From Hormiphora californensis (Eukaryota > Animalia > Ctenophora), in the NCBI GenBank assembly GCA_020137815.1, contig CM035352.1, positions 7,874,001 through 7,938,000 of the forward strand: a stretch of DNA of 64,000 bases. The letters are read 5' to 3'. Shown in pieces: positions 11,574 to 63,262 of this stretch. The stretch's first letter is position 1. Each line of letters opens with the position of its first letter. Below the pieces are notes generated by a model that did not search any database, was not told the origin of the DNA, and was given only the letters and a program-made list of their open reading frames with translations. Position numbers and translations under genes: made by a program.

Positions 11574-12825
11574 GCCCGTGGTGACGTCCAATATCAAGTG
11601 CACACTGTCCGGTTCGGATACAATGCAGCCTATGACAAGCATTAGGTAACACACGTGTCTTGAGAACTTTCTTGGAAGTGTCCTTTTCATATCAATTAAT
11701 AATTGTTAATATCCATCTAATTAATAACCCAGCATGGCTTGATATATTATGTAATAGCGCCTATATCGGGAAGACAATAAGGACCTGCTGCTACCAGGCT
11801 GTGCTGGTGGAGAATTTAGAATTGCACTATATATTATCACCCAATATACCTAGCCAACAATATGTATGTAATTGGCAGAGACAATTATACCCAGACGTTC
11901 GCCCTTTAGCGGCCATAAAAAACTTTGTATTCTCTATTATTATTACTATTATTACTGCCTGTCTGTCAGAATCTGATTGGGATGTTTGTCGGAATCTGTC
12001 TGGGTACCACTCTGGGTAGACCTGGACCCACAGGGACACTTCATTTCTTCGTGATACCCGCTGTCTGGCACCGTAAACCTGTAGTCTTCCCAAACTGAGA
12101 TGCACGCTAAGGAGTCCGACCATCGACACCAGACTGGAACCAGGAAGGCAGGATTCCCTCGCCGCCACATGTCTTATATAATTCCCTGTGTATTTTGCTT
12201 TTGTTTTCGCTCCTCCCTGGCTGGCTTCTTCATACCACAATGATTAGCGCTTTTTATCCCCCTCTGTGTTATATTCATTCCTCTCTTTCCCTCTTCCTGC
12301 TCTATTCCTTCCTCTCCCTTCCAGCTTCCTGCTCTATTCCTTCTTCTCCCTCTCTCCCCTTCCTGCTACCTATCTCCCTCTCTCAGCCCTATTCCCTCTC
12401 TCAGCGCTATTCCCTCTCTCGCTCTCTTCCCTTCCTGCTCTCTCCCTTCCTGCTCCGTTCCTGCTCTCTTTCCCTCTTCCTGCTCTATTCCTGTCTCCCT
12501 GCCTCTCTCTGTGTTATTTCGGTGGTGGTGGCGCTGGGATTATTTTAAAACGTATCCTTCCAAAGGAGGAGAGTTAAATTATAAACTTCGCTTTTTAATT
12601 TAACCGCCTCATTTTGATTAGCCCTCCAGAAAATTGTATTGTAGTAGAGGAAACTAGGCACTAGGCAGTCCTTTCATATTATCTATATTATGAACTACCA
12701 CCCTCACTCTCAACATAGCTGAAGACGTGAAACATAGTGTTCTCGAAAGCTTCTGTCAATTTTAATTGATTTAGTACCATTATATCGTTGTTTATCTTTT
12801 TAATATATCCTCTATATATTTTAGT

Positions 12826-15598
12826 ATGATGGACCCCGCTTTTGGATGTACACTGGGAGTCACTACCACCCTGACTATCACCCTGAACACCCTCTTCTTC
12901 CTACAACTCCGCTCCAAACGCACCCCTACAGCCCTCCTCCACCGCTCAGTGGCCCTCTCTGACATGCTCCTCGGACTAGTTTCACTCCTCTCCGCAGCAT
13001 CATTCTTTATCGACAGGACCTTCTCAAGTATATCCTGGCTGTGTCCAATCTTGGCAGCGGGTACTGAGATACTCCCCTCTACAACTCTCTACTCCCTACT
13101 ATTCATCCTGTCTACTAAATGTATTATAATCTATTTCCCACTCCGATCTCGTCATCTCATTACCCATCGGAATGTCTTAATTCCTCTCCTTATTCTCTGG
13201 ATACCCAGGTGTCTGTACGTGGTGACTAGAGTTCTGGTATTCGGATCGGACTACTGGCCCGATATTGGAACCTGCCTGGCGGGACACTTCTTTCTCTGTT
13301 ACAATTTTGTCTGGGTCCTTGGGGTTGCCACATTCCTTCCCCTTCTCCTGATCATCCTGGTAACAGGACTAATAGGTGTAAAGGTGAAGAAGCGACAGAC
13401 AGACAGACAGATCCTGATGAGTGAGGTTAAGAAGGCGGTTGAGAGGAGCAAGAGGGACAGGGATAAGAACTTTGTAGCACGGGTTCACAACCCACTGTAC
13501 TCCGGATCTGATCCGGTTATCCTGCAGTGTTCCACTGAAAATTCATCAACTTCCCGTGTTCCGGTTGGTGGTAAACGACAGCAGCGAAGGGTTAGAGCTC
13601 ACAGTGTAGCCTATACCGGACCTATAAACGGTCTATCCCCGATCTATGCGGCCACCCCCGCCCTTAGAGCCACCTCATCCCTCAGATCACTAAGGGACGA
13701 AGAACAGAGTCTTCCTAACGTGAACCCTGGGATGGTAAAGAGGCTGAAAAGACTCAAGAGTGTGGACAGTACACACAGTTCACACAGTACAGTGGATAGT
13801 ATCCAGGAAGAACCGTGTATAATGACGGATTCTGAGGAGAGTCTGATTCCATCCAATCCCCGACCTAACAAACTCAAGGACTATCTTTCAAAGAAGCACA
13901 GTTTGGTGAGTATAGCCAGTATTGCATCACGCCGGCCCTCCCGACACTCAACCATCAACTCGCCCATATCCCGTTGGAAGAGGGTGTTTGAGGCAACTCG
14001 GAACAGTCCAAAGAAGGACGCCCGTCGAGCTACCGTCACTGTGGTTCGCTGTGAGCCCGGTAGTATGACGGTAGAGCTAGCTGAAAAGCAGCGGAGGTTT
14101 AGCATGAACGAGACTTCTGTTAGGAAGCACGGCGGAGAGATGGAAGGGTATGGTAACAGCTATTAGAACACTACAACCTGCACCTGAAGTTGTCCTCCAG
14201 GTGCCGGAGATAATGATCCAGGTCGATGAGGCAGAAGAGAAGAGAGTCTCCATTACTTCTACAACGCGGGTCAGGGGGCCAGTTGGACAGGTTGTGGTGA
14301 GAGAGATTGCAGCTGTGAACCGGCTAAATGTTAACTGGACCCCTCCAAAGTCCCTGATGACTGCTCCCTGCAAGGTGGTGGAGCTGAAGGTCCCGAAGGC
14401 ACGGGTTATGGTGAAACAAGTGGAGGTGGAGAAGAAAACAACGAAAGAGGAGGTGGAAAAGAAAGTGACACCTCCTGAGAACAAGGATCCATTAGGGAAC
14501 ATGCCGACGGGGAGGTTTAGAAGAACTGCGAATGGGGTTCCTCCTGTGAAACCCAAACTACTCCGCACTTCAAGTAGATCCTCTGTTCCAGGGGCCCAGA
14601 GAGTGGTGACCCGCCGGGTGGGCCGGGTACACGGTCAGGGAAGAAGTCCATTACAGACACAAGTCAGTGCCCCGGCAGCTTCTTCACACCCTACTTCACC
14701 TCCTAAACAGAGGAGACAAGGTGTGATTGCGTGTCCTAATGCTCCCCAACCTACTATCGCTCCAGAGCTACCCTCCTCAACTCCATCACCCCATCTGTTG
14801 GACGTTATTGCACTGAAGTATCACCGAGGGGATGGAGAGGTGAAATCGCTGAGTTGCTACGATTTGGCGTATGAGACAGAAACTGAACGGGATATCGAGG
14901 CTGCACAACAGTTTCTCAACAACTATAAAAACAAGTTCCAGCCCCACATCATTCCAATGTGGACTAAAAGGGGGGATAATACAGTGGTGCATAAAGCACG
15001 GAAACCCATCAAACTACCCCGGGCATTTCGTGTTGTTGAGGACGGGGGAGGGGGGTTTGATCCGATATACCGGACAATTAACAATGGCCCGGTGTTTGTT
15101 ATAAAAAACAAGGAACCTCGATCAGACATTGTAGAGGACAAGAAGGCAACCATGAGGAGATCACTCTCCCAGCCGACTGTACGGCGAGACTTTGTACTAC
15201 TGGGTGAAAACCTGGGCGGTGGTTTCATCGACAGGAAATTGAGTAGGTCTCTACAAAAGAAAATGGAGCTCAGGACAGCTAGTGCTAAGAGTAACCAGAG
15301 TGTGTATTGTCTGGTGATCAGTCTGATGGTAGCACTTGTATCTGTGTTATGCTATGGCCCCATGTTCCTAGTGTGGTTGTTACACGTGGTTAACAGACAC
15401 TCAGATCTCCAGATATCTCACATGGTGGAGGGGTTAACTCGAACATTACCAATTACTGGACCTCTCTTTTTTGTTGTCCTGCCAGTGCTTCATGGCGGGT
15501 TTAACCCACTAATTTTCATTCTCATGGGGTGTAAGAGACTCAAACTCAGCAGTATAAGAAGTTCCGCTAGAAAGCTAAGAAAAAGACGTTCAATGTAG
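12826..15598 (+). CDS. Rhodopsin-class (family A) GPCR-like protein with a very large ICL3; reading frame broken near 14150
   Basis: ORF 12826-14166 has five hydrophobic helices (TM1 TLN, TM2 SVALSD, TM3 end STKCIIIYFPLRSR, TM4 WIP, TM5 FLP). The overlapping ORF 14150-15598 ends with TM6 (LCYGP) and TM7 (FNPLIF) plus a basic tail. Confidence 0.8.
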
Positions 15599-16982
15599 GT
15601 CTCAGGATCTTGTGCACGTGTGATGTTTTAGAGTGTGAGTGTGATATTTATGAGATCTGATTCAAGTACTTGTCTTAACATGCATAAAATTAGTAGTATA
15701 GTGTTTGTGCGTTGTGTGCCAGACCGAATAACAGCAAAACAAAAGGGCAACTATTAGTATTCATCTATCTTTCTCTCTATCTTTCTCTTTCCCTCTCTTC
15801 CCTCTTTCCCTCCCTCTCTATCTTTCCCTCTATCTCTTTCTCTCCCTCTCCCTCTATCTCTTCCTCTCTCCCTCTCTCTCTCCCTCTCTTTACTCTTTCC
15901 CTCTCTCTCTCCCTCTATCTCTTTCTCTCTTCCTCTCTCTGTGTAAATGGGCGGCAGCGGACAAAACACAGACAACAACAACGATAATGACCTCAGATTT
16001 CCGGCTTCCATTTTCGGATAAGTGGAGAGGTTGTGTGAACCACCGGGAGTTCTCTGACATCTCCGCCCACTCTGATCTACTCACTGGCTGCTCCTCGTTA
16101 TCATCTTCACCCTCGTCGTCATCAGGAAACTCTAGTGTCACCTGGATCAAGAATGGAATGGAATGTTAGGTACTATTACTCTACTACTACAGAGTGGATA
16201 ATATCAGATATTGTAGACAGTAGTAGCAACGGATGTAATGAGATAATAGCTCCAACTACTACTGAATATAGGCTCTTACCTTGGCGTGCGGGAAAAGAGT
16301 TTCATCGGCCATATCTGGCTCTCTCTCTCTATCGCTAATCGGTTCTAGAAATTACTGCTACTGCAGAAGATAAAAGTTCATCATCTTGGTAGTTCGGTGG
16401 TAATTTTATAAAATAATCGTAATTACAAATCTTAGGCATATGATAGTGATTCAATGTGGAGTTACTAAGAACAGAAAAAGAGTTTTCAAACATAGCGGAC
16501 GCCGACCTTTGTGCCCCATGATTGAATTTTGGGATCACTGCCCGTGCCCCGTAACGAGGGGTGTCAGCCCAAGAGCACCGTACATATTTAAGAGTATCAA
16601 AATAGGGTACCACAAAACGTTATCCGCTTGTCCAAATGTTTTTAACTCGAATTTCGAACGACCTTCAAACTAATTCTCTTTAATCAATATCATTTTAGGT
16701 GATAATTGATCATTGAAATCATACCAAGATCGTTCTAACGCCAATGAGGGTGATACCGTGAACAACATTGGTGAAAAACGGCGTTTTTCACCAATTCAAA
16801 ACGGTGAAAAACGGTGAAAAACTTACGGTGAAAAAACGGTGAAAAGCAGCAAAAAAGGCACCAACTTTTTTTTAATTTTTTTTTGTTTTTTTTTAATTCA
16901 CTAACCCCAACACCGATTGGCATCACTTTCCGACAGCCGAAGAGAAGCTGCCGAAGAGAGAAAGGGGGTAACCGTATGAAGA

Positions 16983-18107
16983 GTTAATCGCGATGAGTCT
17001 CATTCGGAGCCTGTACATGTTAAGAGCGGAGTTCCCCAAGGGTCAGTTTTGGGACCGATGCTCTTTTTAATATATCTGAATGATATCACAACGGTTGTGT
17101 CAGGAAGTACACTGCGGTGCTTTGCAGATGACACACGAATCATGAAGAGTATTGGAGGAGAAATGGATATGAAAATACTCCAACGGGACCTGGATTCGGT
17201 TACCGAGTGGTCACTGAGAAATAACATGAAACTGCATACGGATAAGTTTGAATTCCTACTGCATGGCGTTTCACGTGACCATCTCATGCACCATCTCCCT
17301 TTTACTGCTGATATCTTGAGCTACAGCACTTCAGCAGGGCTGCTGAAACCTATGTCCTCGGTTAAGGATTTGGGCGTGCTTGTTCATTCTGATCTAACCT
17401 GGTCCGGTCACATCGCTACCATCGCCGAAAACGCTAAGAGGAAAGCAGCATGGGTGTTTAGTGTGTTCAGGACCAGGGATAGAGGGGTTATGGTAACCCT
17501 CTACAAGAGCATGGTAAGAAGCCTGCTGGAATACTGCTGCCCTCTTTGGAATCCTACCAAGATCCAGGATATCCAGGTTTTAGAGGGGGTGCAACGCTCC
17601 TTCACCAGACGGATCTCTGAGTGCAAGGGGATGGATTACTGGCAGAGACTGCAATACCTGGGCCTTAGCTCCCTGCAGCGCAGGAGAGAGAGATACTCCA
17701 TTCTCCACATGTGGAAGATCATGCACGGCCTAGTCTCCAATGACCTCAAAATAAGGTTCACAACTGGAGGCCGACTTGGAGTTCGAGCGGTGGTTCCCAA
17801 ATTAACCAAACTGTCCACTATGGCCAAACAGACAGCATATGACGGATCCTTTGCTGTTATGGGACCACGACTATGGAACTGTTTACCTGCAAAACTTAAT
17901 CAAATTGACGAGTTCCAGGTATTCAAAGTTCAGCTGTCAAGATACCTGACGTCGTTTTCGGACTGTCCCCCAGTTACGGGATATGTACGAAGCTCCAGGA
18001 ACTCTATACTAGACATGAGACTGAACGACGGGGAGTTGCAAGCAAGCGATACCCCGGTCGGAGTGTAAACGGCGGCGAATCATCAGAAGTAACCAGAAGT
18101 AAGTAAC
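16983..18107 (+). mobile_element. 5'-truncated LINE (CR1-group-like RT C-terminal half)
   Basis: SGVPQGSVLGPMLFLIYLND, FADD, LEYCCPLWNP, SLQRRRERY and GPRLWNCLP motifs. Stop at 18068, followed by a short AGAAGTAAC/AAGT repeat tail. The 5' boundary is approximate. Confidence 0.85.
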
Positions 18108-19849
18108 ATAAGGAACCATAATAAAGTTCAAGAGCCTCCAAGAGCACCCAAGAGCGCACCCGATCGAAGAGAGACCACACCTGAGAGCGCACCACACCCA
18201 AAAGAGGCCACATCCAAGAGCTCACCACCTCCAGAAGACACCACTTCGAGAGCGCACCACATCAAAGAGAGCTCCCCATCCAGAAGATACCACGCGCAGG
18301 GGACACCACGCGCAGAAGAGACCAGCGCGGCGTTGTATTTGCGCGTGCGGTCTCTTAAGTTTAAAGTTTAAGTTTAAGTTTACGCACAATTTATCACAAA
18401 GTCACACAATTAATATATAACTTCGTCCCGCTCTTACACCATACACTAATAAAGTGATACAAGGCTGAGAGGTGAAAATATACAGTTCACATCAGCGGTT
18501 TCCTAAAGCGGTTTAAACAATACTTAGAGACAGTGATACACATCCTAGTAGCATTAGATGCACAAAATACGAGGAACAAGGGGTTATAGAAAACAAGGTA
18601 ACGAACTAACAAAACAAGCAGACAAACATAAAAACAGATTAAACAGAATACACAAAGTCACAGACACAACATCAGCAGTCAATACAAAACGGTTAATACA
18701 AAAACATACTAACACACGTACAAACACATTCACAGACAAACAGACAATCACAAACACATACACACAGATTCGGTAATAAATAAATAATAAATTAGCTGTC
18801 CTTCAAACACACACTCACTGAAGAGTCCTTGACAAGTTTTTTATCGAGAAAAACGTATTGAGAAAAACGGTATCCTTGACAAGTTTTTTATCGAGAAAAA
18901 CGTATTGAGAAAAACGGTGTGTATGGTCTTCTTTCTTCATTCTTCGGCATAAAACTCAGCCAGTCTGGAACCTCAGCTACTCAAACTCTGCTAAACAACT
19001 CAGAGGCCAGAAAATGTTAACAATTTACACAAAATGCACACTTGAAAATATTAACTCATTGACTCAGTCATAGGTGGTCCCTCTACTAAGTCTCAGGTAG
19101 ATGTAGGAAGGAATGGTGTAGAAAGTAGGAAGGGATGTAGGAAGGAATATAGGAAGGAATGGTGCAGAGTAGAGACAGTAGGTCAGGTGGGATGTAAGGA
19201 AGCTGGAGAGAGGGTCTGGAAGAAGAGACAGCACCTAGGACACGGGAAACCCAGGAACGAACCAGGTAAGGACAGGGAGGCAGACTATTTAGTTCCATGG
19301 AACTGCAGGAAGAAATGATGTAGGATTGAGAAAGCAGGTCATAGGTGGGATATAGGGGAGCTGTAGTGTGGGTCTGGAAATAGGGCGTGGTGGCAATGGT
19401 AGCGAGAGACAGCAGACAGGACACGAGAACATATGTACGAACCAGGTAAGGACAGGGAGGCAGACTATTTAGTTCCAGGAAGGAATGATGTAGGATTTAG
19501 ACAGCAGGTCATAGGTGGGATATAAGGGAGCTGGAGTGTGGGTCTGGAAGTAGGGTAGTGGTGGCAGTGATAGCGAGAGACAGCAGACAGGACACGGGAA
19601 CCCAGGAACGAACCAGGTAAGGCCAAGGGAGGGATCTATTTCCCAAAAGTTGTGAAACAGGATCAGATTTAGAACCGCATGCAAGGAGTATTATAGGCAG
19701 GGAATAATGAGGCGTTTATGTGCGGAGCTGGAGCCTGGGGGAAAACAACAGATTTACTGTGAAGTTAACTGGACTGGGTGCCCAGGAAATGATGCAGGTA
19801 GATTTGTGCCGGGAAGATGGTGCGGTACTGATATAATGCCGAGTGAGGT

Positions 19850-22795
19850 TTATTCAGGTCCATAAGCCAAAGTAAACATATGGGTTTTCAAGGCCTTTTT
19901 AAACATCGGCAAGGTTTCTGTGGTTCGAATTTCTTTAGGTAGGCGATTCCAGATCCTCGGAGCAGCTATACTAAAAGCTCTCTCAGTGGTTTTGTAGTTG
20001 TAGTTACTGTGTACCTCTTCCAGTCTTGTCGTGTCACAATCGACTCTTAAACTCATCGGTTTTTGTTTCCGTCTTTGTAGCATTTCTGATATGTATCCAG
20101 GCGTCCCATTATTCAGGGATTTGTATACCATCATACAGATCTTATATTCTATTCTGTGTCTAACAGGTAGGAAGTGGGATTTTTTCCGTAGATCTGTTAC
20201 ACCACGTCTGCTACGTTTACCATGGACAAAGCGAGTGGCAGAGTTCTGTAGCTTCTGAAGACGCTTCACATCCTTGTCTTTGAGACCTATCAGTAGAGCG
20301 CTACAATAATCAATCTTTGAGTGTATCAGTGAGTTCACAAGTTGGGTCTTTTGCTTTTTGTTCAGTTTGCCTGCAATTCTCCACATGTTGACGAGTTGGT
20401 AGTTGCACGACTGAACAACTCTGGAGACGTGCTGGGACATCGTGAGTTCGCTATCGACCATGACGCCGAGATTCTTAGCAACTGGTTTGACTTCCGTTTC
20501 TTCTTGTGCAATGTTCAGTGTGGCATCACTGGTAGATTTATCCCATTTGTTTCGTAGGATAAGAACTTCTGTTTTATCCGGATTCAACTTCAACAGGTTC
20601 TGTGTCATCCAGAGACGAATGTGAGACACACAGCTCTGAACTTTCTTTATCACATCATCGAATGTTTCTGGTGTGAAAGCTATCGAAAGTTGAGAATCAT
20701 CCGCATACATGTGCAGGCTGAGACCATATAGTTCCGCTATTTTCTGTAGATCTCTGGTGTATAGTATGAACAAGAGGGGCCCCAGGATGGAACCCTGAGG
20801 AACACCAATGCTGATAGACTTTGCTTCTGACTCGACCGAACCTATCTTTACTCTAGCTGTTCGATTAGTAAGATATGATTCAATCCAGCTCAATACCTTT
20901 CCAGTCACTCCATAATCATGTTTCAGGCGGTGTAGTAGCTTGGCATGAGATATGGTGTCAAAAGCCGCTGAAAGGTCCAGAAGAACTAGGATGACCTTGG
21001 TCTTTTTATCCAGCTGCACAAGTATGTCGTTTACTATCTTGATAGTGGCCGTTTCACAGCTATGTTTCGATCGATAAGCAGATTGAACTTCACTGAACAG
21101 TCCATTACTCTCCACGTAGTCAGTAAGCTGGTCAGCGACGCATTTCTCCAGGACCTTCGAGATGAACGAAAGGTTTGAGATTGGTCGATAACTATTAAGT
21201 TCATCAGGGTCTAGGTCACTGTTTTTGTATGATGGACGAATAACAGCAGACTTTAAGCTATCAGGGACTTCTCCTTTGGTGAGACTGGTGTTCACAATCT
21301 TAGAGACTATTGGAATGAGGGCTGGAAAAGCATCATTGACGAATGAAGTTGGCATAGGGTCCAGGGTACAGTGTTTCTTGTTCATAGCACGGACAGTAGC
21401 AGCCAGCATCGAATCGGAGACAGGTTGAAATTTCGCAAACTTTGGCAACTCTGCATCTGTTTCTAGTCGCGGTGTCAGTTCAGGAAGATCGGCTGTGAAA
21501 TCCGGATCAAGCTGAATTTTCTCATAGATTGCCGCGATCTTGGAAGTGAAAAAGTCGATCATCCGGTCTGGAAGCCCATCTGGATCGTCAGTGGAGGGGA
21601 GTTGGGTCGGTGTCTTTTCCTTTCCGAGCAGGTGGTTTAGGATTTGATACAACGCAGCATGATTTCCGTCTGCTGCCTCTAGACGCTGTTGGAAGAATTC
21701 TCTTCTGGTGCGATTGAATACAGTTTTAGTAAACCGGATCTCAGCTATGAACAACTTTTCAGCTATTAGAACTTTTTCGTGGCAGACTGGTTTGTTCTTT
21801 TGCTTCTGTTTAAGGGCTTTCTTGTACGCTGACTTGTACTTCCGCTCTGCTTTTCGGCGTTTGTGTAGAGCATCATAGCACTCTTGAGTAAACCAAGGGG
21901 GCTTAGAGGCTTCCGAAACAACTTTCTCCTCAATCGGTGCTAACTGGTCAAGTATGTCTTCAAGTATGGTGTTATACAGTTTGACACATTCATCGACTGA
22001 TTCAGGAAGCGGAGATTGACACAGTTTTGATTTCAGAATCATATCCCGCACCAATTCAGTAGAGACTCGTTTCATCGAGCGGCCAGTGATCGTTTTCTTA
22101 TGTTTGATCCCGTTTGCTGAGCCACAATGAATTTTGAAGTCAACTAAGAAGTGGTCGGGTACTTCAGGGGTAGGTGTGACATTCAAAGAGTCAAGAAGTG
22201 GGACATCTTTTGTCAGTACTAGATCAAGGGTGCCCCCGTGGAGGTGAGTCGGTTCTCGAACATGCTGTATCCAACAATGATCCTCAAGTATTTGCAAGAA
22301 ACTTTGGGCAAATGGACAGAGCAGTTTTTCCACGTGAACATTAAAGTCACCAGTTATCAGATGATGTCCAGACTTCGATGAAAACACTGAAAGAAACTCC
22401 TCGAACTCCTCAAGGAAGATCGCCTGTTTGGAAGAATCAGGGGGACGGTAGATAACAGCAACTCTCGTCAGGTCTATTCCAGGTCCATCAAGTATTGCTT
22501 CCAGCAACTCAAAGCTCAAGAAGACTTTACGAGATTTACATAGTTTCACTTTTAGTTCTTTCCTGTAAACAATGGCAACTCCACCACCTCTGCTACCGCG
22601 AGGAACACTGAGCAGCTTGTAGGGGAATTCTTCTATCTCCTTTGATAGAGCAGATTCTTTTGGAGATAGCCAAGATTCGGTTACACACATCACATCTATT
22701 TCCTGATCCATAGTTAGTACCAAGACTTCCTCTGTTTTGTTGCGAATCGAGCAGCAGTTGATGTTTCCGAAACTAAGAGAGGGAACTTTAGACAT
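19850..22795 (-). CDS. LINE ORF2: APE endonuclease + reverse transcriptase (981 aa)
   Basis: NINCCS, TESWL, GGGV, YRPP, GDFN, TLDLV and DH motifs (APE); SYRPISNL, QSAYR, LDLSAAFDT, GVPQGSILGP and YADD (RT). Confidence 0.95.
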   Translation of the reverse strand: MSKVPSLSFGNINCCSIRNKTEEVLVLTMDQEIDVMCVTESWLSPKESALSKEIEEFPYKLLSVPRGSRGGGVAIVYRKELKVKLCKSRKVFLSFELLEAILDGPGIDLTRVAVIYRPPDSSKQAIFLEEFEEFLSVFSSKSGHHLITGDFNVHVEKLLCPFAQSFLQILEDHCWIQHVREPTHLHGGTLDLVLTKDVPLLDSLNVTPTPEVPDHFLVDFKIHCGSANGIKHKKTITGRSMKRVSTELVRDMILKSKLCQSPLPESVDECVKLYNTILEDILDQLAPIEEKVVSEASKPPWFTQECYDALHKRRKAERKYKSAYKKALKQKQKNKPVCHEKVLIAEKLFIAEIRFTKTVFNRTRREFFQQRLEAADGNHAALYQILNHLLGKEKTPTQLPSTDDPDGLPDRMIDFFTSKIAAIYEKIQLDPDFTADLPELTPRLETDAELPKFAKFQPVSDSMLAATVRAMNKKHCTLDPMPTSFVNDAFPALIPIVSKIVNTSLTKGEVPDSLKSAVIRPSYKNSDLDPDELNSYRPISNLSFISKVLEKCVADQLTDYVESNGLFSEVQSAYRSKHSCETATIKIVNDILVQLDKKTKVILVLLDLSAAFDTISHAKLLHRLKHDYGVTGKVLSWIESYLTNRTARVKIGSVESEAKSISIGVPQGSILGPLLFILYTRDLQKIAELYGLSLHMYADDSQLSIAFTPETFDDVIKKVQSCVSHIRLWMTQNLLKLNPDKTEVLILRNKWDKSTSDATLNIAQEETEVKPVAKNLGVMVDSELTMSQHVSRVVQSCNYQLVNMWRIAGKLNKKQKTQLVNSLIHSKIDYCSALLIGLKDKDVKRLQKLQNSATRFVHGKRSRRGVTDLRKKSHFLPVRHRIEYKICMMVYKSLNNGTPGYISEMLQRRKQKPMSLRVDCDTTRLEEVHSNYNYKTTERAFSIAAPRIWNRLPKEIRTTETLPMFKKALKTHMFTLAYGPE

Positions 22796-22797
22796 AT

Positions 22798-24234
22798 CTA
22801 GTTTTTTGCCTGTTCTTCAATGAGGGATAGGCGGAATGGGCACAGCCGTTCTCCACTGTGATGATCTCTGGCTCGTGTTTTAAAAGTTTGAGACTTGTTG
22901 CAATTGACACAGAACTTCTTATCTCGGTTGGTGCAGGTTTTAACATCGTGGTCATCGCCGCAGAGTTTACACACCAGAACAGTGCTAGTACAGTCCGCTG
23001 TTTTGTGTTTAAACCCATGACACTTGAAACACTGTGGTATATGGTATCGTTCAACTACATTCAGTCGGGACCAGGCATAGTACACCTTTCCTGTTTCGAG
23101 AAGACGTTTTTGGAGGGGAATAGGGAGTCTTAAGGCAACTGTACACTTTTCCTTGTTTTGGAAATGGCTTTTTATGTAAACCACAGTAACATCCGGTGAT
23201 ACTAGACATGGGTTTTTCTGTTGCAGAGTAGTGAGTACTCGATCTTTGGCCTCTTCCGTTGTCAAGCTCTCTATATTTTCCGGAACATTGAGAATCGTGA
23301 CCTTGGCAGTTCCAGAGATCACAGACATGATGGCATCCTCGGGAATCGATTTGGTGACCAGATCCTCGACTGCTTCGATATTAGTTGATTCAGGGAAACC
23401 TACCCTGACTTCTGCAGCATGGTTTGTATCCATGAAGAGCATAGGAGTCTTTGCTAGGCAAGTGGTTAGGGTCTTCGAGATGTTCTCAGGGTCATTTGTT
23501 CCACATGAGATTCTTATTCTGTGGGACTTCTCACGGGGCACTGTTGGGGCCGGTGGGGGTGGGGCAGATTTAGGAATCGGCGTTGCTAGAAGTGGCTGCT
23601 TGTTTTGGCGCTGCGTGGGCTTCTTCTGACCGGCAACAAACCATGCAGGTTCTGCGGGAACAATAGTAGCATCTGCTACGTTTGTTGGCTCGAGTTCAGG
23701 CTGTTGGGTAGTGGCAGTGGTTAGGGAGGATTCAATAGGGTTGAATGTGGCTTGGATAGGGTTTAGTGTGGATCCAATCATTTGGGCTACTTTCTCAGCA
23801 ATAGCATTGAGTAACGAGTTGCCGGGTGTTAGTAATTGGGCAGTGTAAATACAAGATGGACAAGTCCAATCAGGTGTTTTGAAAACTTCACTACCTTGGG
23901 GAACGAGGTCTAACGCAGCCACGAGAAATTTCAGTCCAACACACTCAGCATGATAGTCAACATTGCATACCTTGCAGTGCATGACTCCATTGGAATCCTG
24001 TACGTTGCTTCCGCACAGACATGGCTTTGCAGCGGTGGTCATATGGTAGGGAGTGTTAGGTTGGCCGTGAAAGGACACAGGATGTGGAGTGGAGGAAAGG
24101 GCGGTAGGGAAGAGGGTTGTTCCGATCAAGGAGTTCGGTGGGATGTTGGGGTCTTTGGTTTTACATACCGGAGTTGTTGGAGACGAAGGAGACGAAGGGT
24201 AGATGTTGGTCATACTTCGACTTCTCGTGATCAT
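22798..24234 (-). CDS. LINE ORF1: PHD finger plus gag-like CCHC zinc knuckles (about 478 aa from the ATG at 24234)
   Basis: CLC..CKVC..YHAEC..WTCPSC (PHD); CFKCHGFKHKTADC, CKLCGDDHDVKTC and CVNC..H....C knuckles. The ORF-track extension to 24564 runs into MITE and flanking DNA and is not part of the element. Confidence 0.85.
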   Translation of the reverse strand: MITRSRSMTNIYPSSPSSPTTPVCKTKDPNIPPNSLIGTTLFPTALSSTPHPVSFHGQPNTPYHMTTAAKPCLCGSNVQDSNGVMHCKVCNVDYHAECVGLKFLVAALDLVPQGSEVFKTPDWTCPSCIYTAQLLTPGNSLLNAIAEKVAQMIGSTLNPIQATFNPIESSLTTATTQQPELEPTNVADATIVPAEPAWFVAGQKKPTQRQNKQPLLATPIPKSAPPPPAPTVPREKSHRIRISCGTNDPENISKTLTTCLAKTPMLFMDTNHAAEVRVGFPESTNIEAVEDLVTKSIPEDAIMSVISGTAKVTILNVPENIESLTTEEAKDRVLTTLQQKNPCLVSPDVTVVYIKSHFQNKEKCTVALRLPIPLQKRLLETGKVYYAWSRLNVVERYHIPQCFKCHGFKHKTADCTSTVLVCKLCGDDHDVKTCTNRDKKFCVNCNKSQTFKTRARDHHSGERLCPFRLSLIEEQAKN

Positions 24235-24300
24235 CGTCGTCTTTTCTGTTATCACTACTTTAACTTTATCGAGGCGTCTCTTGGCTTTTACTTGACATGC

Positions 24301-24336
24301 CTCAATAAATAGTTTTACGTTGTAGTTGATGAAAGT
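24301..24336 (-). other. Spliced-leader-like 36-mer at the LINE 5' end
   Basis: The minus strand reads ACTTTCATCAACTACAACGTAAAACTATTTATTGAG exactly at the element boundary. It is AT-rich, has no ATG, contains an ACTAC core, ends in TTGAG and is not followed by a GT donor. Confidence 0.65.
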
Positions 24337-24982
24337 TTCTGCGCGTGGTGTCCCCTGCGCGCGGTATCTTCTGGATGGGGAGCTCTCTTTGATGTGGTGC
24401 GCTCTGGGAGTGGTGTCTTTTGGAGGTGGTACGCTCTTGGATGGGGTGCGCTCTTGAACTTTATTATGGTTCCTTATTGGGTTCGATAAAAGGCAACAAC
24501 AAAAAACAACTCGGCGAACATTTTTAAATTTCTGATTTAAATAATGCGCGCACACCAATGCCACGCTTTGTCAAATACTATTGCGCGTTACATTCAATGC
24601 ATCGTATTTATCAAAACTGATTTAACAACAAATGTTGAGCTCCAAATTCCAAATTCCAAGCACAGGTTTTTATTTGTTAGTTTATTTTCGTCTTTTTGTG
24701 CTTTTAACGGTGAAAACGCTCCCTTTTGTCCACCTTATCGCTTTCTGGGCATTCACAAGAGTATTTTCTGTATGGTGTTATCCACGAGGATTAAAAATTC
24801 TGATTGGCGATCCAAAAAATAGTACAAAGGAAAAAGTACAGCTGCAGGAGCCTTCCTGCTTGGAGGCTCCTGCAGCTGTTGCCTGCTGTAGTCCTTTGTT
24901 GATGCGAATAGAACAGATTTAATAAATTGGCTAGTTGAAAATGGTGTCCTGGACTCATCTATCACCTCCAAAAAGGTAGTTC

Positions 24983-27900
24983 ATGTCTGAGAAGTTACCT
25001 CAAGAGAAAGCCCCTGGGCCATCCACCACGTCACAGGAGTACCAGAAAACTAAAGGTACAAATCGTTAAAAACAAATCTTACTGTTTCGGGTTTCCTCGG
25101 GCGGATCAACTAAGTACTAACAATGTCACTCTTTCAGCGACTACAAAGATCCCTGGTACGGCGGTGTTTAGATCTCCCTACTCCATTGCCAGTAATTCTC
25201 CAGCATGCACCCCCTACTACATCATGTCCACACCCGTTACTGCCGCTATGAATTCTAATGCTAGTGACGAGGATAAGCGGAGACATATCCACAACGAATC
25301 GGAAAGGAAACGAAAGAACAAGATGACGAAATGGGTGACAAGATTGAGTGCCATTGTTCCTGACTGCCAGCCTAAAATGAGTAAACATCTCATACTGGAG
25401 AAGACTGTACAGTTTGTGGAGCAGTTAAAGCAAGAGGCTGAGCTTCCAAATGATGTCCAGGCGCTCAAAGCTGAGATTGTGAAGCTCACGAAGAACGTGG
25501 AGTATCTGTCAACTGAAAATGCTCACTTTATGACTCTGTTAAAACATGCACAGAGCCTGAGTAGAGGTGCCTGGTCACTGAACATGTCTATAACACGAAA
25601 CCGATCTTCATCAAGTAAGAGTTTTATCATAAAACATCGGCAGGTAAGCATAGCATTATGAAACATAATGTAGTTATTTTTGTTACCTCCGTCCTCCATC
25701 CACTCTTCAGACAATACATCTAAAATGTAACATGTTTAACAGGCAGTGAGGGTGAGGACACTACGACAATGACTCCTACACTTGACAGGGTATCTGTCTC
25801 TAATCTTACCAAGGCATCCTCCGCCCCTAATCTACCGGTAAAATATTGATTAACATGGAATTGACATGTTAGCATGAAATTAACATAAGATTATCATGAA
25901 ATTAACATGTTGTTTTTCAGACGATAGTGCCAGTGTCAGGTACGACCTCGCAGAAGTTGTACACCCTTCCCCAACCTATACAGGTACACAACACAAATAT
26001 TTAACAGCACTAAAATATTGATATGAGTGATCACTGAGAGGGAGAGAGAGGGAGGTACAATGTCTCCTGACTCCGAGAAGGAGGGGAGGTACAATGTCTC
26101 CTGACTCCGAGAAGGAGGGGAGGTACAATGTCTCCTGACTCCGAGAATGAGGGGAGGTACAATGTCTCCTGACTCCGAGAAGGAGAGGAGGTACAATGTC
26201 TCCTGACTCCGAGAAGGAGGGGAGGTACAATGTCTCCTGACTCCGAGAAGGAGGGGAGGTACAATGTCTCCTGACTCCGAGAAGGAGGGGAGGTATAATG
26301 TGTCCTGACTCCGAGAAGGAGGGGAGGTACAATGTCTCTTGACTCCGAGAAGGAGGGGAGGTACAATGTCTCCTGACTCCGAGAAGGAGGGGAGGTACAA
26401 TGTCTCCTGACTCCGAGAAGGAGGGGAGGTACAATGTCTCCTGACTCCGAGAAGGAGGGGAGGTACAATGTCTCCTGACTCCGAGAAGGAGGGGAGGTAC
26501 AATCTCCTGCTTCCAGGTTTCTCCTGACCCTCTCGTTCATCAGGTAACGCTGCAACCCAAAGTAACTATGACCGCAATGACAACTACTGTTGGACCTAAC
26601 TTGGTGGCAGCTGGAACCCCCTTGGTATCTGCTAACCCATTACTGGCCGGAACTAACCTGGTCTCTGCTAACCTGGCCCAGGGAACACCTGTCCTAGCCC
26701 AGGGGACACCCGTCTTGGCTCAGGGGACACCCGTCTTGGCACAGGGGACACCTGTACACATTGCAGGAGTTCAGGTATTAATAGTGTAAGGTCAGAAAGT
26801 TTGTTATTCGTTTAGACTTTAGAGGGAGTTTTACTGGTTCAGGTATTTCTTCTGGTATTGGTTATCATTTAGCTGTTTAATTATGTGCCTAAATGTTCAC
26901 AAATCAATTTTCCCTCTCCTCAGGTTAAAGACAATACGGTGTTGAAGACAGCTCCCCAAGGTGTTACCGGGGGTACTACACACTCGATCCAGGCCTTACT
27001 GGGGGATAACAATGCAAACAACAAGACTGTCTTTCTACAAACTGCTAGCGTTCCAACTGATGGTAGGTTTGTCTGTCACTTTGTCTAGTGTCTGGTGCAG
27101 TGGATTTGTCTGTTTGTCGTTGTGTTTGCTGATGGTTGGTTTGTATGTTTGTCTGCGTTTTTGGTGAGTGAATAAGAGAAATATGATTTTACTTTCCTGC
27201 GTCATTGTGAATGGTACTTCCCTTTATCCAAATCTTCCCTATAATACAGGTGGAGCTAACGCAGTCTACATGACGAACAGTCCCATTGTAGCGGGCCCAA
27301 CCCACCAAACCCCGGTCCTGATCCAAGGAGAGAACGGTCCTGTGGTGATCATGATCCCAGCAGCACTACCCCTCCAAACTGCAGTCCCTCTCAATACAAT
27401 GTCCAGCAACCATATCATGTGTGAGCCGACATCGTACTTCAAGAGCCCCATTGTGCTAAACCAGTTCCCGCAGCTGCTGAATTATCAAGCGAGTGGGGAT
27501 CAGCCCGGGGGTCCTGGGGCTCCTGGGCAGGGTGTCACTGGGACTGTTCAGGTCGGATCAGCCGCTGTTATACAGGGTGAGTGTATTAAAATTGTGAGAT
27601 AGTGAGATAATATATTATAGTGGCCTTTTTGAAGTGTTCTAATATAAAGTAGAGCAGGAGCTGGTATATTATTGGTTTTATTTTACATGTAAAAGCCGGG
27701 AGTGATAAGAAATACACTGGAAATCTAACCCATCTCCCCATCTTTCCAGGGAGCCAGGGACAGCCCATGGTAGTCGGGACCCAGCCGGTTATTGCCCAGT
27801 TATCCTCCACAGCCACAGCTCCCACAATGGTTAACGTGAATCCTGGTGCTAGTGTCATCCAACAAGGGGGACAGGTGATTCAGCAGGGTGGACAGGTGAT

Positions 27901-29529
27901 TCAGCAGGGTGGAATGGTCGGGGTTCACACTGGACCCGTTACTGGCCCTGTCCTGATACCACAGGTAGATATAATGGGTAATTAGAGGGCAATTAGCGGG
28001 TAGATATGGGTAATTAGTGGGTGATTAGAGTTTTAATTTGATGTAATTAGTGATGGGGTAATATGTAATTTGATGTAGCTACAGTCGGGCCTCGATTTAC
28101 CAGCCCTGATTTACCGTGTCATTACATCTCTATCTCCATCAGGTATCGACTCACCAGGGTGGTCAATGTTTCATACCAATGGATGGTCATCACATGGTGC
28201 CAGTCCAACAGGTCACCACTACCCTAACAGCAGCTGGATCTGTTGATCAGATGCTACAAACCACCACACCACAACCACCCGTCAGCAGGTATTTGGTATA
28301 GTTACCCCCTAATATTCCATCTAGATTGCCCCTAATTGCGCCCCTCAGCTCCCCCTAATTGCCTCCCTAATTGCTAACTCTCACAGTTGCAGTGCACCGG
28401 GTGCCGACAGTGCTCTATCACAGGGTGAGAGCAAATACAAATAGAAACAAGTTAGTTAGTCAAACTAACTTGTTTCTATTTGTAATTGCTAACTCTCTCT
28501 AGATTATTTTCCCACCCTAATATTGCCCCCTAATCTCCACCCGTCCCAGGTATATAACTCCCTAGCTCCCTAGCTCCCTAGACCCACCCTAATCCACCAC
28601 CTCTTCTTGCAGGACCACGAACGTGACAGATTTCTCCATCTCCCCTGCTCCCAAGACCCACCCTAATCCCCCTCCCTCCCCAGGACCACGAACGTGACAG
28701 ATTTCTCCATCTCCCAAATCTGCCAGACCCAGCAGCAGTATAACTCCCTAGCTCCCCTTAATTGCTCCCTAGACCCACCCTAATCCCCCACCTCTTCTTG
28801 CAGGACCACGAACGTGACAGATTTCTCCATCTCCCAAATCTGCCAGACCCAGCAGCAGTATAACTCCCTGGCAGGGGATGACCACCAGAGTGACAAGTCA
28901 GATGACATATACCTCAGTACGTCAGATAGTAGGTAGATAATTATAGCATGATGACTGACACTACTACACTTCTGCAAAACAATATTTATTTGTCCTGTAG
29001 TTCCGTTATCTTGTAAGACTCCCACTGGCAACTAACCGAGTCTAGGAGTCAGGAGATAGGGTTTTTTTTCATAGCCACCTCTAATAAACTGAACAGCTAA
29101 CCCCCCCATTGCCCTCTATCAACTGTTAGCTAACCTCGTCTATCCCTCCTCCCAAATGTTTATAATACTTTATGCTGTTAGCTAACCACCTCTATTCCCC
29201 ATGAATTTAACAGCTAAATATCCAACCCTATTGCCCTCTAATCTTTATGTATTATTAGCTAACCACCTCAATTCTTTCCCAATGTTGTTGTTAGCTAACC
29301 ACCTCTATTCTTTCCCAATATTGCAGCTCCCACCCCCTCCCCCCAAATCACCATCTGACCACTTCTAACCACCTCAATTCTTTCCCAATATTGCAGCTTC
29401 GGTAGTGAGTGCTACACAACGTTAGGTAATGTCACCCTCAGTTCTGCGAGGGATGGAACACCTGAACCAGGGTCCGAGGGAGGGAAACAACTCAGCCACA
29501 GCATCGCCAACCTTACTGGAAATAACTGA
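24983..29529 (+). CDS. USF-family bHLH-zip transcription factor with a long low-complexity C-terminal region (multi-exon)
   Basis: KRRHIHNESERKRKNKMTKWVTRLSAIVPDCQPKMSKHLILEKTVQFVEQLKQ followed by a zipper-like segment, then a series of GT-AG exons with Gln/Pro/Val/Gly-rich sequence. Start and stop are inferred. Confidence 0.75.
26051..26507. repeat. Intronic 35-bp minisatellite, about 13 copies
   Basis: Unit GGAGGTACAATGTCTCCTGACTCCGAGAAGGAGGG with near-identical copies. Confidence 0.95.
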
Positions 29530-33000: not shown

Positions 33001-36000
33001 AAACGACCAAAAACGACCAAAAAAAACCAACCATACCCTGGGTTTCGGAAAAAGTTTGAATTTTTTTGGGGCTGCACCCCCCCAAGCTAATTTCTTCACC
33101 AATAGGTCCGGATAGGTGTCTAGTATGACCAAAAAAAAGTACACGATAATCGGAAGTGCGCACGCGTACTGAGCGCGCAAGAAGTAAACACATGTAATTA
33201 CATGTATTTCTAGCCTGGCACGAAAACCCAAAAACTATCTTAGGAGACGAGTAGAGAAAAAATCAAGGGCACTAGATTGTGTAGCGTCCTCGCATTAGTG
33301 GGGGTAGGTGCTGGAATTAAGTCTCTATCTCATCTGGTTAATTAGATAATTGGATAATTAGATATGCGCATAACCGTATTTTGGCTATATGGCTATAGCC
33401 ACTTAGGAATGGTTTATAGACTTTTCACTGGTGCCATTTTGTAGGCAATAGCCAAGTTATGGGGGGTCGACGTCGGACATTTAAGCTCTATCTCCAACCG
33501 TTTGGCCGCTATTTGGCTTTAAAGATGCTCAAAATCGGGCTTTTTACCGTTTTTTGCTCATTTTGAGCATCTTTAAAGCCAAATAGCGGCCAAACGGTTG
33601 GAGATAGAGCTTAAATGTCCGACGTCGACCCCCCATAACTTGGCTATTGCCTACAAAATGGCACCAGTGAAAAGTCTATAAACCATTCCTAAGTGGCTAT
33701 AGCCATATAGCCAAAATACGGTTATGCGCATATCTAATTATCCAATTATCTAATTAACCAGATGAGATAGAGACTTAATTCCAGCACCTACCCCCACTAA
33801 TTCGAGGACGCTACACAATCTAGTGCCCTTGATTTTTTCTCTACTCGTCTCCTAAGATGGTTTTTGGGTTTTCGTGCCAGGCTAGAAATACATGTAATTA
33901 CATGTGTTTACTTCTTGCGCACTCAGCGCGCGTGCGCACTTCCGATTATCGTGTACTTTTTTTTGGTCATACTAGACACCTATCCGGACCTATTGGTGAA
34001 GAAATTAGCTTGTTAAAAATTTTGCTGAAAAAATATACTAAAATCCCCTTACTATTAGCTTAATACACTATACTATAGACCTAAGTCTATCATTTAAAGG
34101 AAAATACATCTAAGAAACATGTATCGATCGTTGAAACCAATAAAAGCGAAATACAATTATTTCATTCTTATGAACAGTACCTGTTAGTGTAATTGCACAC
34201 GTCAATACCAATAGAATTGTTGGAAAGTTCATTTTTAGAGACGATCAACGCACCGCAAGATGTAGAGGGAAAATGAATGATTGAGCTCTTTATCCCCCCC
34301 CTTTCTCTCACACGGGGTCACCCCTCTGTTTCTCCATCTCTTTGTTTCTCTATCTCCATCTTTTTGTTCCTATTCCTTCATTGAGATTTCAACAGTGTTT
34401 CTTGTTCGTTTCTGATCTGATGAGGCGAGGGTGATACATGTTTTGCAGTTCAAGCAACGCATCAAACATCGTCATTTTATCATTTTGCTTTGGGGCCTAA
34501 TTTGGTTTTTGGGACCGGAGAGTCTAGCTATGTTTTATTAAAGTTGATAAAATTAATGTAGCAGGAATGAATAGAGAAACAATGAATGATAGACTTATTT
34601 GATGATGACCCCCCTGCCCCAGCCCATTTTAATTTCCTACCTCCAGTCCTACTATCTTTCCCTTCCTCTATTTCTCCCATTAAAACACCACCAACTCCAC
34701 AGGGCAGTGATAAAGTGGAGGGAGAAGATAATAAAAGAAGAGAACCCAGACCAGGGAAAGGAGGATAAAGAAGAAGAGATGGAGGTTCAGGAGGAAGAGG
34801 AGGATGAGAAGGTTAGTGTGAGAAGGGTGGATATAAATGCATGATATACCTATCAAGTATTTAATCAAGTATTTAATCACTCTTCTCATCTTCATTATAT
34901 GAGGTCGAAAAGAGTAAAATTCAGTTCAGGATTTCTTTCTTCACAGCACTGTATAATATATCTGATTTCAGACTAAGATTGAGCACCAAATCCTGGAGTT
35001 GGAGGCAGCAGAGAAGGTTGCAGAGCGACACAAGAAGAAGAAGCAGAGCAAACTAAAAGAGAAGAATCTGAGCAAAGTGGCCCGAAACTTGGATGTACCG
35101 AAAGAGGCATTTGGCGCAGATGAGGACCCATCTCTATTTAATCTTCACAACATCAAGTCGAAAAAGGTAACACAGAAAATAGTTGTAAATCAAACTTCAT
35201 TGGCCCTTAAAATACGAATTTATACTTCCACACTCAAGTGTTCCCTATACTATCTCTATTCATTTTCTAAAAACAACACTGCTTCCATTTCAGCATCTGG
35301 ACGAAGTAGAAGAAACCGAGATATCAGCTGGAGAAGAGGACGAAGAAGAAGAGCTGGAGTTCGAGACAGAAGATGAAGATGAGAGTGAGAAAGAAGAAGA
35401 AGAAGAGTCTGGGGAAGAGATAGACTCTGCTTCAGATGAAGATGAGGAGGATGGTAAAGAAGAGGAGGAGGAGGAAGAGAACCCCCTGGTTGTGAAGGAG
35501 AGTAAGGAGAAAGTGGATAAAACTAAACTGTGGTTTAGTAAGGTGAGGAGATCACTTCTCGTTTTGTTGTAATTGTTACGCACGGCTCTCCCTCCTCTCC
35601 GGGCGTTCTCAAATTTCACCACCTTGTCTACCACGGTGAGCTAAGTCCAGCTAGCTTCAACTACTGCCAAGATACAACAAAGGATCAGCTACAACTACAA
35701 CTCCTACCTACAATCACATATCAGATAAGAGCGTTCATTTATTGTTCATTTTTTGTTCATTGTATTTCCTAGTGGCTGTTTTCTGTTTTTTAGTTGTCTG
35801 TTGTAGGGTGCCTCCTGTCTGTCCTTATTCCTCGAGTATTGTTGTAGTTGTGTCTTTGTGTCCGTGTTTTGGAGTAGTGGCTTTTGGGCACTGCCACTAG
35901 GGCCTGCGGGGCTCTTTTACTTCTGCTGCCTCCTTCTCTAGTTCCCTTGCCTAGGCAGGTTTGCGTTCCCTCCCTTTTTTAAGGGTTCCGGTTGCTGTAC

Positions 36001-62469: not shown

Positions 62470-63262
62470 TAGTAGAGTCGATAACTACATCGACCTCTCC
62501 CAATTGTTCCAGTTTTTGTCACATCTGTTTGGAGCCTCGACACGACCTCTAAACAGGTGTTACTTTTTCACAAACTGTTTTCATCTTGGTGTAATCAGCA
62601 GTTGAAATGTTGCTGATCATAACAAAAACCTGACTAAATTTTTTCAACTTGGGGTAAAACCATGGGTGTCAAAAGTTAGCTCTAGGTCCCCTGAGTAACC
62701 ATCCGGAGACTCTAAGAGATATTTCAAGCCGTTCTCCCGTAATCATTAATCCCGGTGGAGAAAAAAATACAATGCGGACGTACGTGAGCGCTGGCAGGCT
62801 GTTTACATGTTATTGTATGTCTCTCACTCTCTCTGGAAAAACCGCACGTGCGGTTGCGCCGCGCGAGATAACTCTTTCTCAAGGGGGAGAAAAGAGATAG
62901 ACGCACATTAACGTTATACATTAAAGTTGAGGTTGTAGGCAATTGCACGTACGTCCATACTCAAATATGTGCTCTACCGGGATTAATGATTACAGGAGAA
63001 CGGCTTGAAATATCTCTTGGAGTCTCCGGATGGTTACTCAGGGGACCTAGAGCTAACTTTTGACACCCATGGTTTTACCCCAAGTTGAAAAAAAATAGTT
63101 CGGTTTTTGTTATGATCAACAACATTTCAACTGCTGATTACACCAAGATGAAAACAGTTTGTGAAAAAGTAACACCTGTTTAGAGGTCGTGTCGAGGCTC
63201 CAAACTGATGTGACAAAAACTGGAACAATTGGGAGAGGTCGATGTAGTTATCGACTCTACTA
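62470..63262. mobile_element. Palindromic MITE with arms of about 290 bp
   Basis: TAGTAGAGTCGATAACTACATCGACC ... GGTCGATGTAGTTATCGACTCTACTA, with ATA on both flanks. Confidence 0.85.

Follow-up and report, generated by a model that had tools for sequence, protein, structure and literature searches.

Within a 64,000-nucleotide stretch of the ctenophore Hormiphora californensis (assembly GCA_020137815.1, contig CM035352.1, forward-strand positions 7,874,001 to 7,938,000; the whole stretch is called the window, and positions are counted along it), a long interspersed nuclear element (LINE) of the CR1/L2 type was found on the minus strand, which begins with a spliced leader (SL) and keeps both of its open reading frames (ORFs) intact. 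This LINE probably transposes via an RNA to which trans-splicing adds a new leader at one fixed junction; the terminal AG of the leader relic itself is the most likely site. That SL-headed copies arise from trans-spliced RNA is strongly supported, as a preliminary description of this DNA had proposed for the window copy, by a head common to the whole family and by two different leaders on one junction of a second family. Host trans-splicing, and not a promoter of their own, is the likely source of the 5' end of the SL-headed elements.

The preliminary description had taken the 36-mer at 24336-24301 (minus strand) for a spliced leader and had expected SL RNA genes in which it is accompanied by a GT donor and an Sm site. 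The 36-mer occurs a single time in the window at up to three mismatches (0 in 100 shuffles), and the expected genes were recovered from metagenome contigs. A degenerate pattern derived from the 36-mer, unable to detect the Hormiphora-type leader discussed below, was run on a metagenome contig collection and found five loci (L001-L005) with an exact 37-mer in 5/5. Three of these (L001, L002 and L004) are SL RNA genes, where the 37-mer is followed by a GTAAG donor and the upstream region is conserved. As the 36-mer is found there as an exon before a GT donor, it can be identified, from sequence, as a spliced leader. The match of the relic to the SL genes extends 2 nt past the 36-mer to 24338, and these 38 nt are 100% identical to the exon of all three genes; the relic is without the first 6 nt of the 44-nt stretch that we took as the SL exon. 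This 44-nt stretch aligns to the published Hormiphora leader (PMC8527503) with a score of 53, the best of 2000 shuffles reaching 36. The SL RNA genes carry U-rich Sm-like sites and two hairpins that differ in their loops only. One site, GATTTTCCG, lies 3' of the donor and resembles the Hydra SL-A Sm site GAUUUUCGG (PMC7986045), and a second U-rich site is located between the two hairpins. L001 and L002 are 99.7% identical and L004 is 87% identical to both, so that two independent versions of the SL gene are represented. The window locus itself is not an SL RNA gene, as had been stated earlier: the relic is followed by GC and not by a GT donor, 66 nt lead from it to the ORF1 ATG, the exon is preceded by a miniature inverted-repeat transposable element (MITE), and no SL promoter or intron is present.

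The leader is far more abundant than the LINE. In X1, one of two DNA contig sets from different studies (X1 and X5, aligned at 80% likeness), the 38 SL bases reach a summed depth of about 100,000 against 222-230 for the LINE 5' end. In X22, assumed to be an RNA run, we found short SL nodes that differ at two positions (depths 440 and 320) as well as a contig joining the SL to unrelated sequence; contigs, those of X22 included, cannot reveal RNA 5' ends. The SL RNA gene lies in the spacer of the ribosomal DNA, on the strand opposite to the 18S rRNA and about 1.6 kb upstream of where the latter starts (L001:1-407 and 2030-2165; L002:1-59); the SL exon is the same in spacer versions that differ by 13%. 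Besides, run X7 holds a further SL relic that looks genomic, is truncated about 5 nt into the exon and has an unrelated flank. No SL or ribozyme family of Rfam matched on the SL loci or the element, the SL patterns had no match in viral contigs or prokaryote genomes, and the LINE proteins and alignments found no relatives in the same two collections.

The 36-mer is not confined to the window LINE family, and neither of the two outcomes by which the preliminary description would have been refuted was observed. The remaining two of the five loci (L003 and L005) are elements in which 42 SL bases, from 2 nt into the exon onwards, are identical, and which have unrelated flanks, a single SL and no tandem leader. 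The joint falls exactly at the exon end in 3/3 elements (window, L003 and L005), with no SL intron or promoter attached. L005 begins a PHD-containing ORF1 that is 84% identical to protein P0050, itself 33-36% identical to the window ORF1, and by these protein alignments is a distant relative of the window LINE. L003 is a complete element of 1.24 kb (L003:1-1252) consisting of the SL, 20 nt, a 319-aa ORF, a short 3' untranslated region (UTR) and a (TTTGTA)n tail. There are 26 relatives of this ORF, located on contigs of 0.9-2 kb. It gave no informative match in Pfam or PDB sequence searches; a fold search with its structural model (pLDDT 69, pTM 0.35) returned human L1 ORF1p as the best hit (2yko, E 1e-5). 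The modelled fold identifies L003 as a putative ORF1-only LINE-type element, unrelated to the window LINE, and it belongs to a large ctenophore family. The nearest Atlas clusters of a second element besides the window LINE are ctenophore-dominated. The depth over the first 140 nt of L003 rises sharply in X1 and X5, as if this head were common to shorter derivatives.

Two leaders were found on one junction. In the contigs listed for X1 (record 6, depth 487) and X5, the UTR of the L003 family runs through TTGAG into a different leader, of which 22/22 nt are identical to the Hormiphora leader and 5/22 to the window type. As both leaders are joined to the L003 UTR in contigs, the genome holds both leader types, and a fixed inherited head is insufficient to explain the junction, whereas trans-splicing there can explain it. 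Fresh SL addition at a fixed junction is well supported: it is evident in the L003 family and, by extension, probable in the window family. The preliminary description had named different SL variants at the same junction as its decisive test; they occur in the L003 family, while the window family offered one SL type only.

The SL head is strongly supported as family-wide for the window LINE. The picture of the 5' ends in X1 and X5 rests on the contigs listed, contigs dropping rare variants and the filter leaving out records. A single contig covers 24239-24328 in X1 (62 nt of UTR and 28 nt of SL) at a depth of 229.7, against 222.5 over the ORF1 start, and a single contig in X5 covers 24239-24324, likewise bridging UTR and SL. 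In both sets the depth of the bins at 24271-24292 is exactly that of the one SL-joined contig, so no contig with another upstream sequence aligned above the UTR. Set against five X1 contigs of single-locus look (depth 31-38, hand-picked among the rows listed, with 6, 73, 83 and above left out), this suggests roughly six SL-headed 5' ends in the window family, or three if the single-locus contigs are at half depth. Among the contigs listed, 18 in X1 and 18 in X5 run on into the 5' bases of the SL before diverging; some of them may be SL genes. A third contig at 24231-24268 (depth 37 in X1 and 1136 in X5, deduced from bin depths) shares the UTR end and the ATG and then departs, and is possibly a derivative element with the same head.

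These data bear on whether the SL-LINE joint could be a one-off chimera or artefact, produced by a template switch onto SL RNA, by insertion beside a stray SL or by mis-assembly. SL copies are so abundant in the genome that chance neighbours must occur, yet the joint lies at the exact exon end in every element, without SL intron or promoter, is bridged in independent runs at multi-copy depth and carries two SL types on one junction, which makes such an origin highly improbable.

As judged from predicted pairing, the 5' UTRs of these elements seem co-adapted to the leader. The pairing was first spotted by eye in the window and then tested on L003 and L005 against shuffled UTRs; the fractions given here are uncorrected, stem from several statistics and concern three elements. 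In the window, 24275-24265 is predicted to pair across the SL/UTR junction (11 bp, one G-U), and 24263-24253 complements the Hormiphora-type SL perfectly over 11 nt (1/3000 shuffles, 3/3000 natural segments). The longest complement is 8 nt in the L005 UTR (76/3000 shuffles) and 6 nt in that of L003 (297/3000). A motif just before the ATG (24258-24241) is common to the window LINE and L005 (17/18 nt identical) and is a better complement of the Hormiphora-type leader than of the window type. The predicted pairing probability of the terminal AG is 1.0 in the window and L003 (0/300 shuffles each) and 0.93 in L005 (32/300, not significant), and SL bases 14-23 are predicted to be paired in all three elements (shuffle fractions 0.027, 0.003 and 0.047). 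Duplexes of the three UTRs with the Hormiphora-type leader are predicted at -10.6, -12.8 and -12.3 kcal/mol (shuffle fractions 0.022, 0.010 and 0.006), the fractions for the same UTRs with the window-type leader being 0.14, 0.15 and 0.006; the window UTR would thus fit one leader at its 3' end and the other in its middle part. SL bases 1-30 paired with the whole UTR no better than shuffles did (0.73 in the window, 0.60 in L005 and 0.08 in L003), the junction helix failed for L005 (0.80), and neither leader gave a significant antisense alignment with L005. A reading of the UTR as a match to an extinct older leader was dropped, since the genome carries that Hormiphora-type leader today.

As 5' hairpins are typical of trans-spliced RNAs in Caenorhabditis elegans (PMC9984361), the plain reading of the UTR fold is a role in translation or export, with a guide and a shield as alternatives. 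As a guide, the UTR antisense would pair with the incoming SL RNA, displace the identical relic, free the weak GAG and hold the SL donor beside it. Segments of the window and L003 UTRs do pair in prediction with the donor region of free SL RNA (-14.1 and -13.4 kcal/mol, figures without shuffle control), and we consider the guide function a speculative and rather unlikely one. If true, it would turn any read-through transcript into a capped, full-length retrotransposon RNA that requires no promoter.

The shielding of the AG by the hairpin would instead suit an inherited head, in which the relic is transcribed within the element (serving as initiator or internal promoter, or kept safe by the hairpin) and passed on, trans-splicing swapping it occasionally. 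The SL has a promoter role in the Ascaris SL gene. For dinoflagellate retrocopies, a promoter function of the SL has been proposed (PMC12014239); the detected copies of the window family, moreover, share one SL type. Against this, three unrelated or distant elements match the exon of present SL genes at every base, and a loss of 0-6 nt per round would shorten the head, yet the 18 contigs in each of X1 and X5 mentioned above, some of them perhaps SL genes, reach the SL 5' bases. The leader swap of the L003 family requires trans-splicing at the junction anyway, and we hold an inherited head to be improbable.

Under the favoured mechanism, fresh leader addition at the junction, a cycle would start from genomic copies that begin, as observed, with the SL exon. 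A copy, having only a 66-nt UTR, would be transcribed from flanking or host promoters, and at GAG|GC the spliceosome would add a fresh capped SL to the UTR, restoring the full 5' end and leaving no trace. The UTR is predicted to fold back onto the leader, and ORF2p would copy the RNA by target-primed reverse transcription, as is standard for LINEs, with a loss of 0-6 nt of leader (2 nt in L003, 2 nt in L005 and 6 nt in the window copy). With no outron-bearing copy among the contigs listed, the simplest acceptor would be the AG of the relic itself, on balance a fairly probable one. An HDV-like ribozyme, sought with a loose home-made descriptor without positive control, gave no matches in any of the three elements.

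Several observations weigh against this mechanism. The GAG at the end of the relic lacks a pyrimidine tract, the upstream sequence having 58% pyrimidines and 42% A, while the acceptors of the neighbouring basic helix-loop-helix (bHLH) gene are CAG in 8/8, in a by-eye stop-free model that is not unique (4320 stop-free chains among the options tried). Full pairing of the AG is predicted for both the window and L003, and its burial in a hairpin should hinder its use as an acceptor. Among the contigs listed, a source copy that is rare and keeps an outron may be missed, and the junction contig of X5 has a depth of 964, far below the contigs feeding it (2314 and 1136). The detected copies of the window family all bear one SL type though the genome holds two. 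Finally, X22, which carries the same species label, covers neither the LINE UTR nor the ORF1 start and is silent on expression. Two of these points are softened: outron acceptors are weaker than intron acceptors in Schistosoma mansoni (PMC5832876), and the X5/X1 depth ratio climbs with G+C content (3.7, 4.2, 10.4 and 19.9 at 26, 36, 42 and 61%), which points to library bias for the shallow X5 junction, missing records being another possible cause. The preliminary description had supposed that the element regenerates itself through host trans-splicing; fresh SL addition supports this in part, while the acceptor role proposed for the relic's AG would fall to a GAG that lacks a pyrimidine tract and, by prediction, lies hidden in a hairpin.

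New leaders and their swap could be explained without a GAG acceptor by one or a few hidden master copies. These would have an ordinary promoter and an outron that ends, at the same junction, in a proper acceptor; the SL-headed daughters made from their trans-spliced RNA would be dead ends like processed pseudogenes. Rare variants dropped from contigs, filtered records and the unseen paths for which the X5 depth gap leaves room could conceal such copies. However, no other upstream sequence appears on 24271-24292 in two studies, though X1 does show single-locus contigs; a retrotransposed master would lose its outron, so that intact families would have to be sustained by a single ageing locus. 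The antisense motif of the UTR is moreover kept in elements with ORF1 families of about 35% identity, which is what a constant presence of the SL in the RNA would predict. A hidden master appears unlikely to us.

The insertion itself is well delimited, and the claim that the leader heads an intact LINE inside a palindromic MITE held: both ORFs are open, without internal stops (ORF1 ATG at 24234, ORF2 from 22795 to 19850), and the LINE runs from 24336 (or 24338) down to 18357 (or 18355), flanked by the inverted-repeat arms of one MITE (24337-24446 versus 18208-18317, 110 nt, 93.6%). In other MITE copies the loose ends at 24337 resemble the central loop, which in the window sits at 18318-18354, so that insertion of the LINE has separated the loop from the left arm. 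An AA that the SL has in common with both the MITE arm and the (AAACTT)n tail points to a 2-nt duplication or to microhomology. ORF2 matched Exo_endo_phos and RVT_1 of Pfam, both above the cut-off, and its relatives include a Mnemiopsis leidyi protein (37% identity). The PHD finger of ORF1 scored below the cut-off (Pfam E 5e-4), and its three Cys/His knuckles are kept in an alignment with five relatives. The layout of ORF1 bears a likeness to type IC and suggests an affinity to the CR1 group (L2/CR1 lineages). The coordinates are collected in Table 1.

Table 1. Features of the SL-headed LINE and of its target MITE in the window
Feature	Position	Strand	Remark
Spliced-leader relic	24301..24338	-	last 38 nt of the SL exon, ends TTGAG; AA at 24338-24337 common to MITE arm
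LINE 5' UTR, 66 nt	24235..24300	-	joined to SL within one unbranched contig in X1, likewise in X5
Antisense-SL segment within UTR	24241..24275	-	predicted pairing
ORF1, 478 aa	22798..24234	-	putative PHD finger; three CCHC-type knuckles at the C-terminus (type IC layout)
ORF2, 981 aa	19850..22795	-	APE endonuclease and reverse transcriptase; starts 2 nt past ORF1 stop
3' UTR, about 1.5 kb	18382..19849	-	contains internal repeat block 19151-19641
(AAACTT)n tail	18355..18381	-	final AA (18356-18355) possibly a 2-nt target duplication
Palindromic MITE arm (target), upstream of LINE	24337..24477	.	very high contig depth; CAG located 2 nt before relic
Same MITE, central loop and second arm	18108..18354	.	

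Around the insertion, the 3' part of another LINE ORF2 lies at 16980-18068 (plus strand) and the MITE begins 40 nt past its stop, so that three elements are stacked. The multi-exon bHLH gene (Pfam HLH) at 25224-28424 (plus strand) is divergent from the LINE and has a long Q/T/V-rich tail; its third intron is filled by a 34-nt tandem array (about 25990-26510). Starting near 25224, it is a possible source of read-through for the window copy. A further LINE at 54743-57685 (plus strand), which we take to be RTE-like, is apparently full-length with an intact 980-aa APE and reverse transcriptase ORF. It has no SL at its 5' end, so the SL-headed habit is not universal among the LINEs of the window. 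A hairpin loop roughly 40 nt upstream of its ATG (54722) contains the octamer GTGGTGAT, and two of the four GTRGTGAT sites in the window adjoin the upstream side of a LINE start codon. Long near-perfect inverted repeats (up to 852 nt, 99%) occupy 45391-47334, 33083-34012, 62470-63262 and 43344-44467; these, two of which are built of related 130-nt units, are young foldback or MITE families. Two long adjoining ORFs at 12775-15598 (plus strand) together resemble a 7-transmembrane receptor with a very long intracellular loop and are broken by a frame change near 14110-14166.

LINEs lose sequence upstream of the RNA start at each jump, and the known remedies are internal promoters and self-cleaving ribozymes. 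Host trans-splicing would be a third route to a LINE 5' end, in an animal and in at least three element families, and the question whether an SL relic in DNA works as an acceptor has been made testable. Dispersed leader copies number 718 and 491 in two ctenophore genomes (PMC8527503). Many of these may be heads of retroelements rather than SL genes.

R2 is a LINE with an HDV-like ribozyme at its 5' end. Together with L1Tc, whose Pr77 yields an unspliced RNA from its own 5' promoter and which exemplifies LINEs headed by a promoter or an HDV-like ribozyme (PMC1874656, PMC3185411), it has solved the same problem of a defined 5' end for an RNA-copied element, whereas the end of the window LINE is a host leader and no ribozyme was detected there with our descriptor and Rfam. 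The LINE body resembles CR1-group LINEs with a type IC ORF1 (PHD, RNA recognition motifs and three CCHC knuckles), described for L2 subgroup 2 and CR1 subgroup 3 (PMC4120745). The likeness covers an ORF1 with CCHC motifs and a putative PHD finger, an ORF2 with APE and reverse transcriptase, a simple-repeat tail and a duplication of at most 2 nt, and the window LINE differs in having a host SL as its 5' end and a 66-nt UTR that is largely antisense to the SL. NeSL, CRE, SLACS and CZAR possess a restriction-like endonuclease and insert into SL genes. They are alike in that LINE sequence adjoins an SL exon, whereas the window LINE has APE, took a MITE as its target and is accompanied by no SL promoter or intron.

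Trans-splicing of transposon RNA, as proposed for the window LINE, is known from two animals. About 30% of transposable-element Iso-Seq reads bear an SL in Hydra (PMC12220107), and six SL-containing transposon genes are reported in S. mansoni, for which the authors suggest retro-transcribed trans-spliced elements or mis-assemblies (PMC5832876). Neither report, in its accessible parts, shows DNA copies headed by an SL throughout a family, a junction at which leaders are swapped or SL-complementary UTRs, and nothing on SL-headed elements stands in the accessible parts of PMC12460157 and bioRxiv 10.64898/2026.05.21.726589; a search of the open-access literature returned no description of family-wide SL-headed LINEs, leader swaps or antisense-SL UTRs. 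In dinoflagellates, retrogenes contain SL relics in DNA that are re-spliced at an internal AG (PMC12014239), and here too the reverse transcription of a trans-spliced RNA has left an SL relic. The dinoflagellate cargo, in contrast, consists of host genes and tandem leaders result from the re-splicing, while the cargo in Hormiphora is a retroelement and a tandem of new SL and relic is absent from L003 and L005, which have a single SL, the window copy being too short to tell. SL-bearing transposon RNAs are thus already known; what seems to be new is an ordinary LINE body that combines a family-wide, host-supplied 5' end with an SL-adapted UTR.

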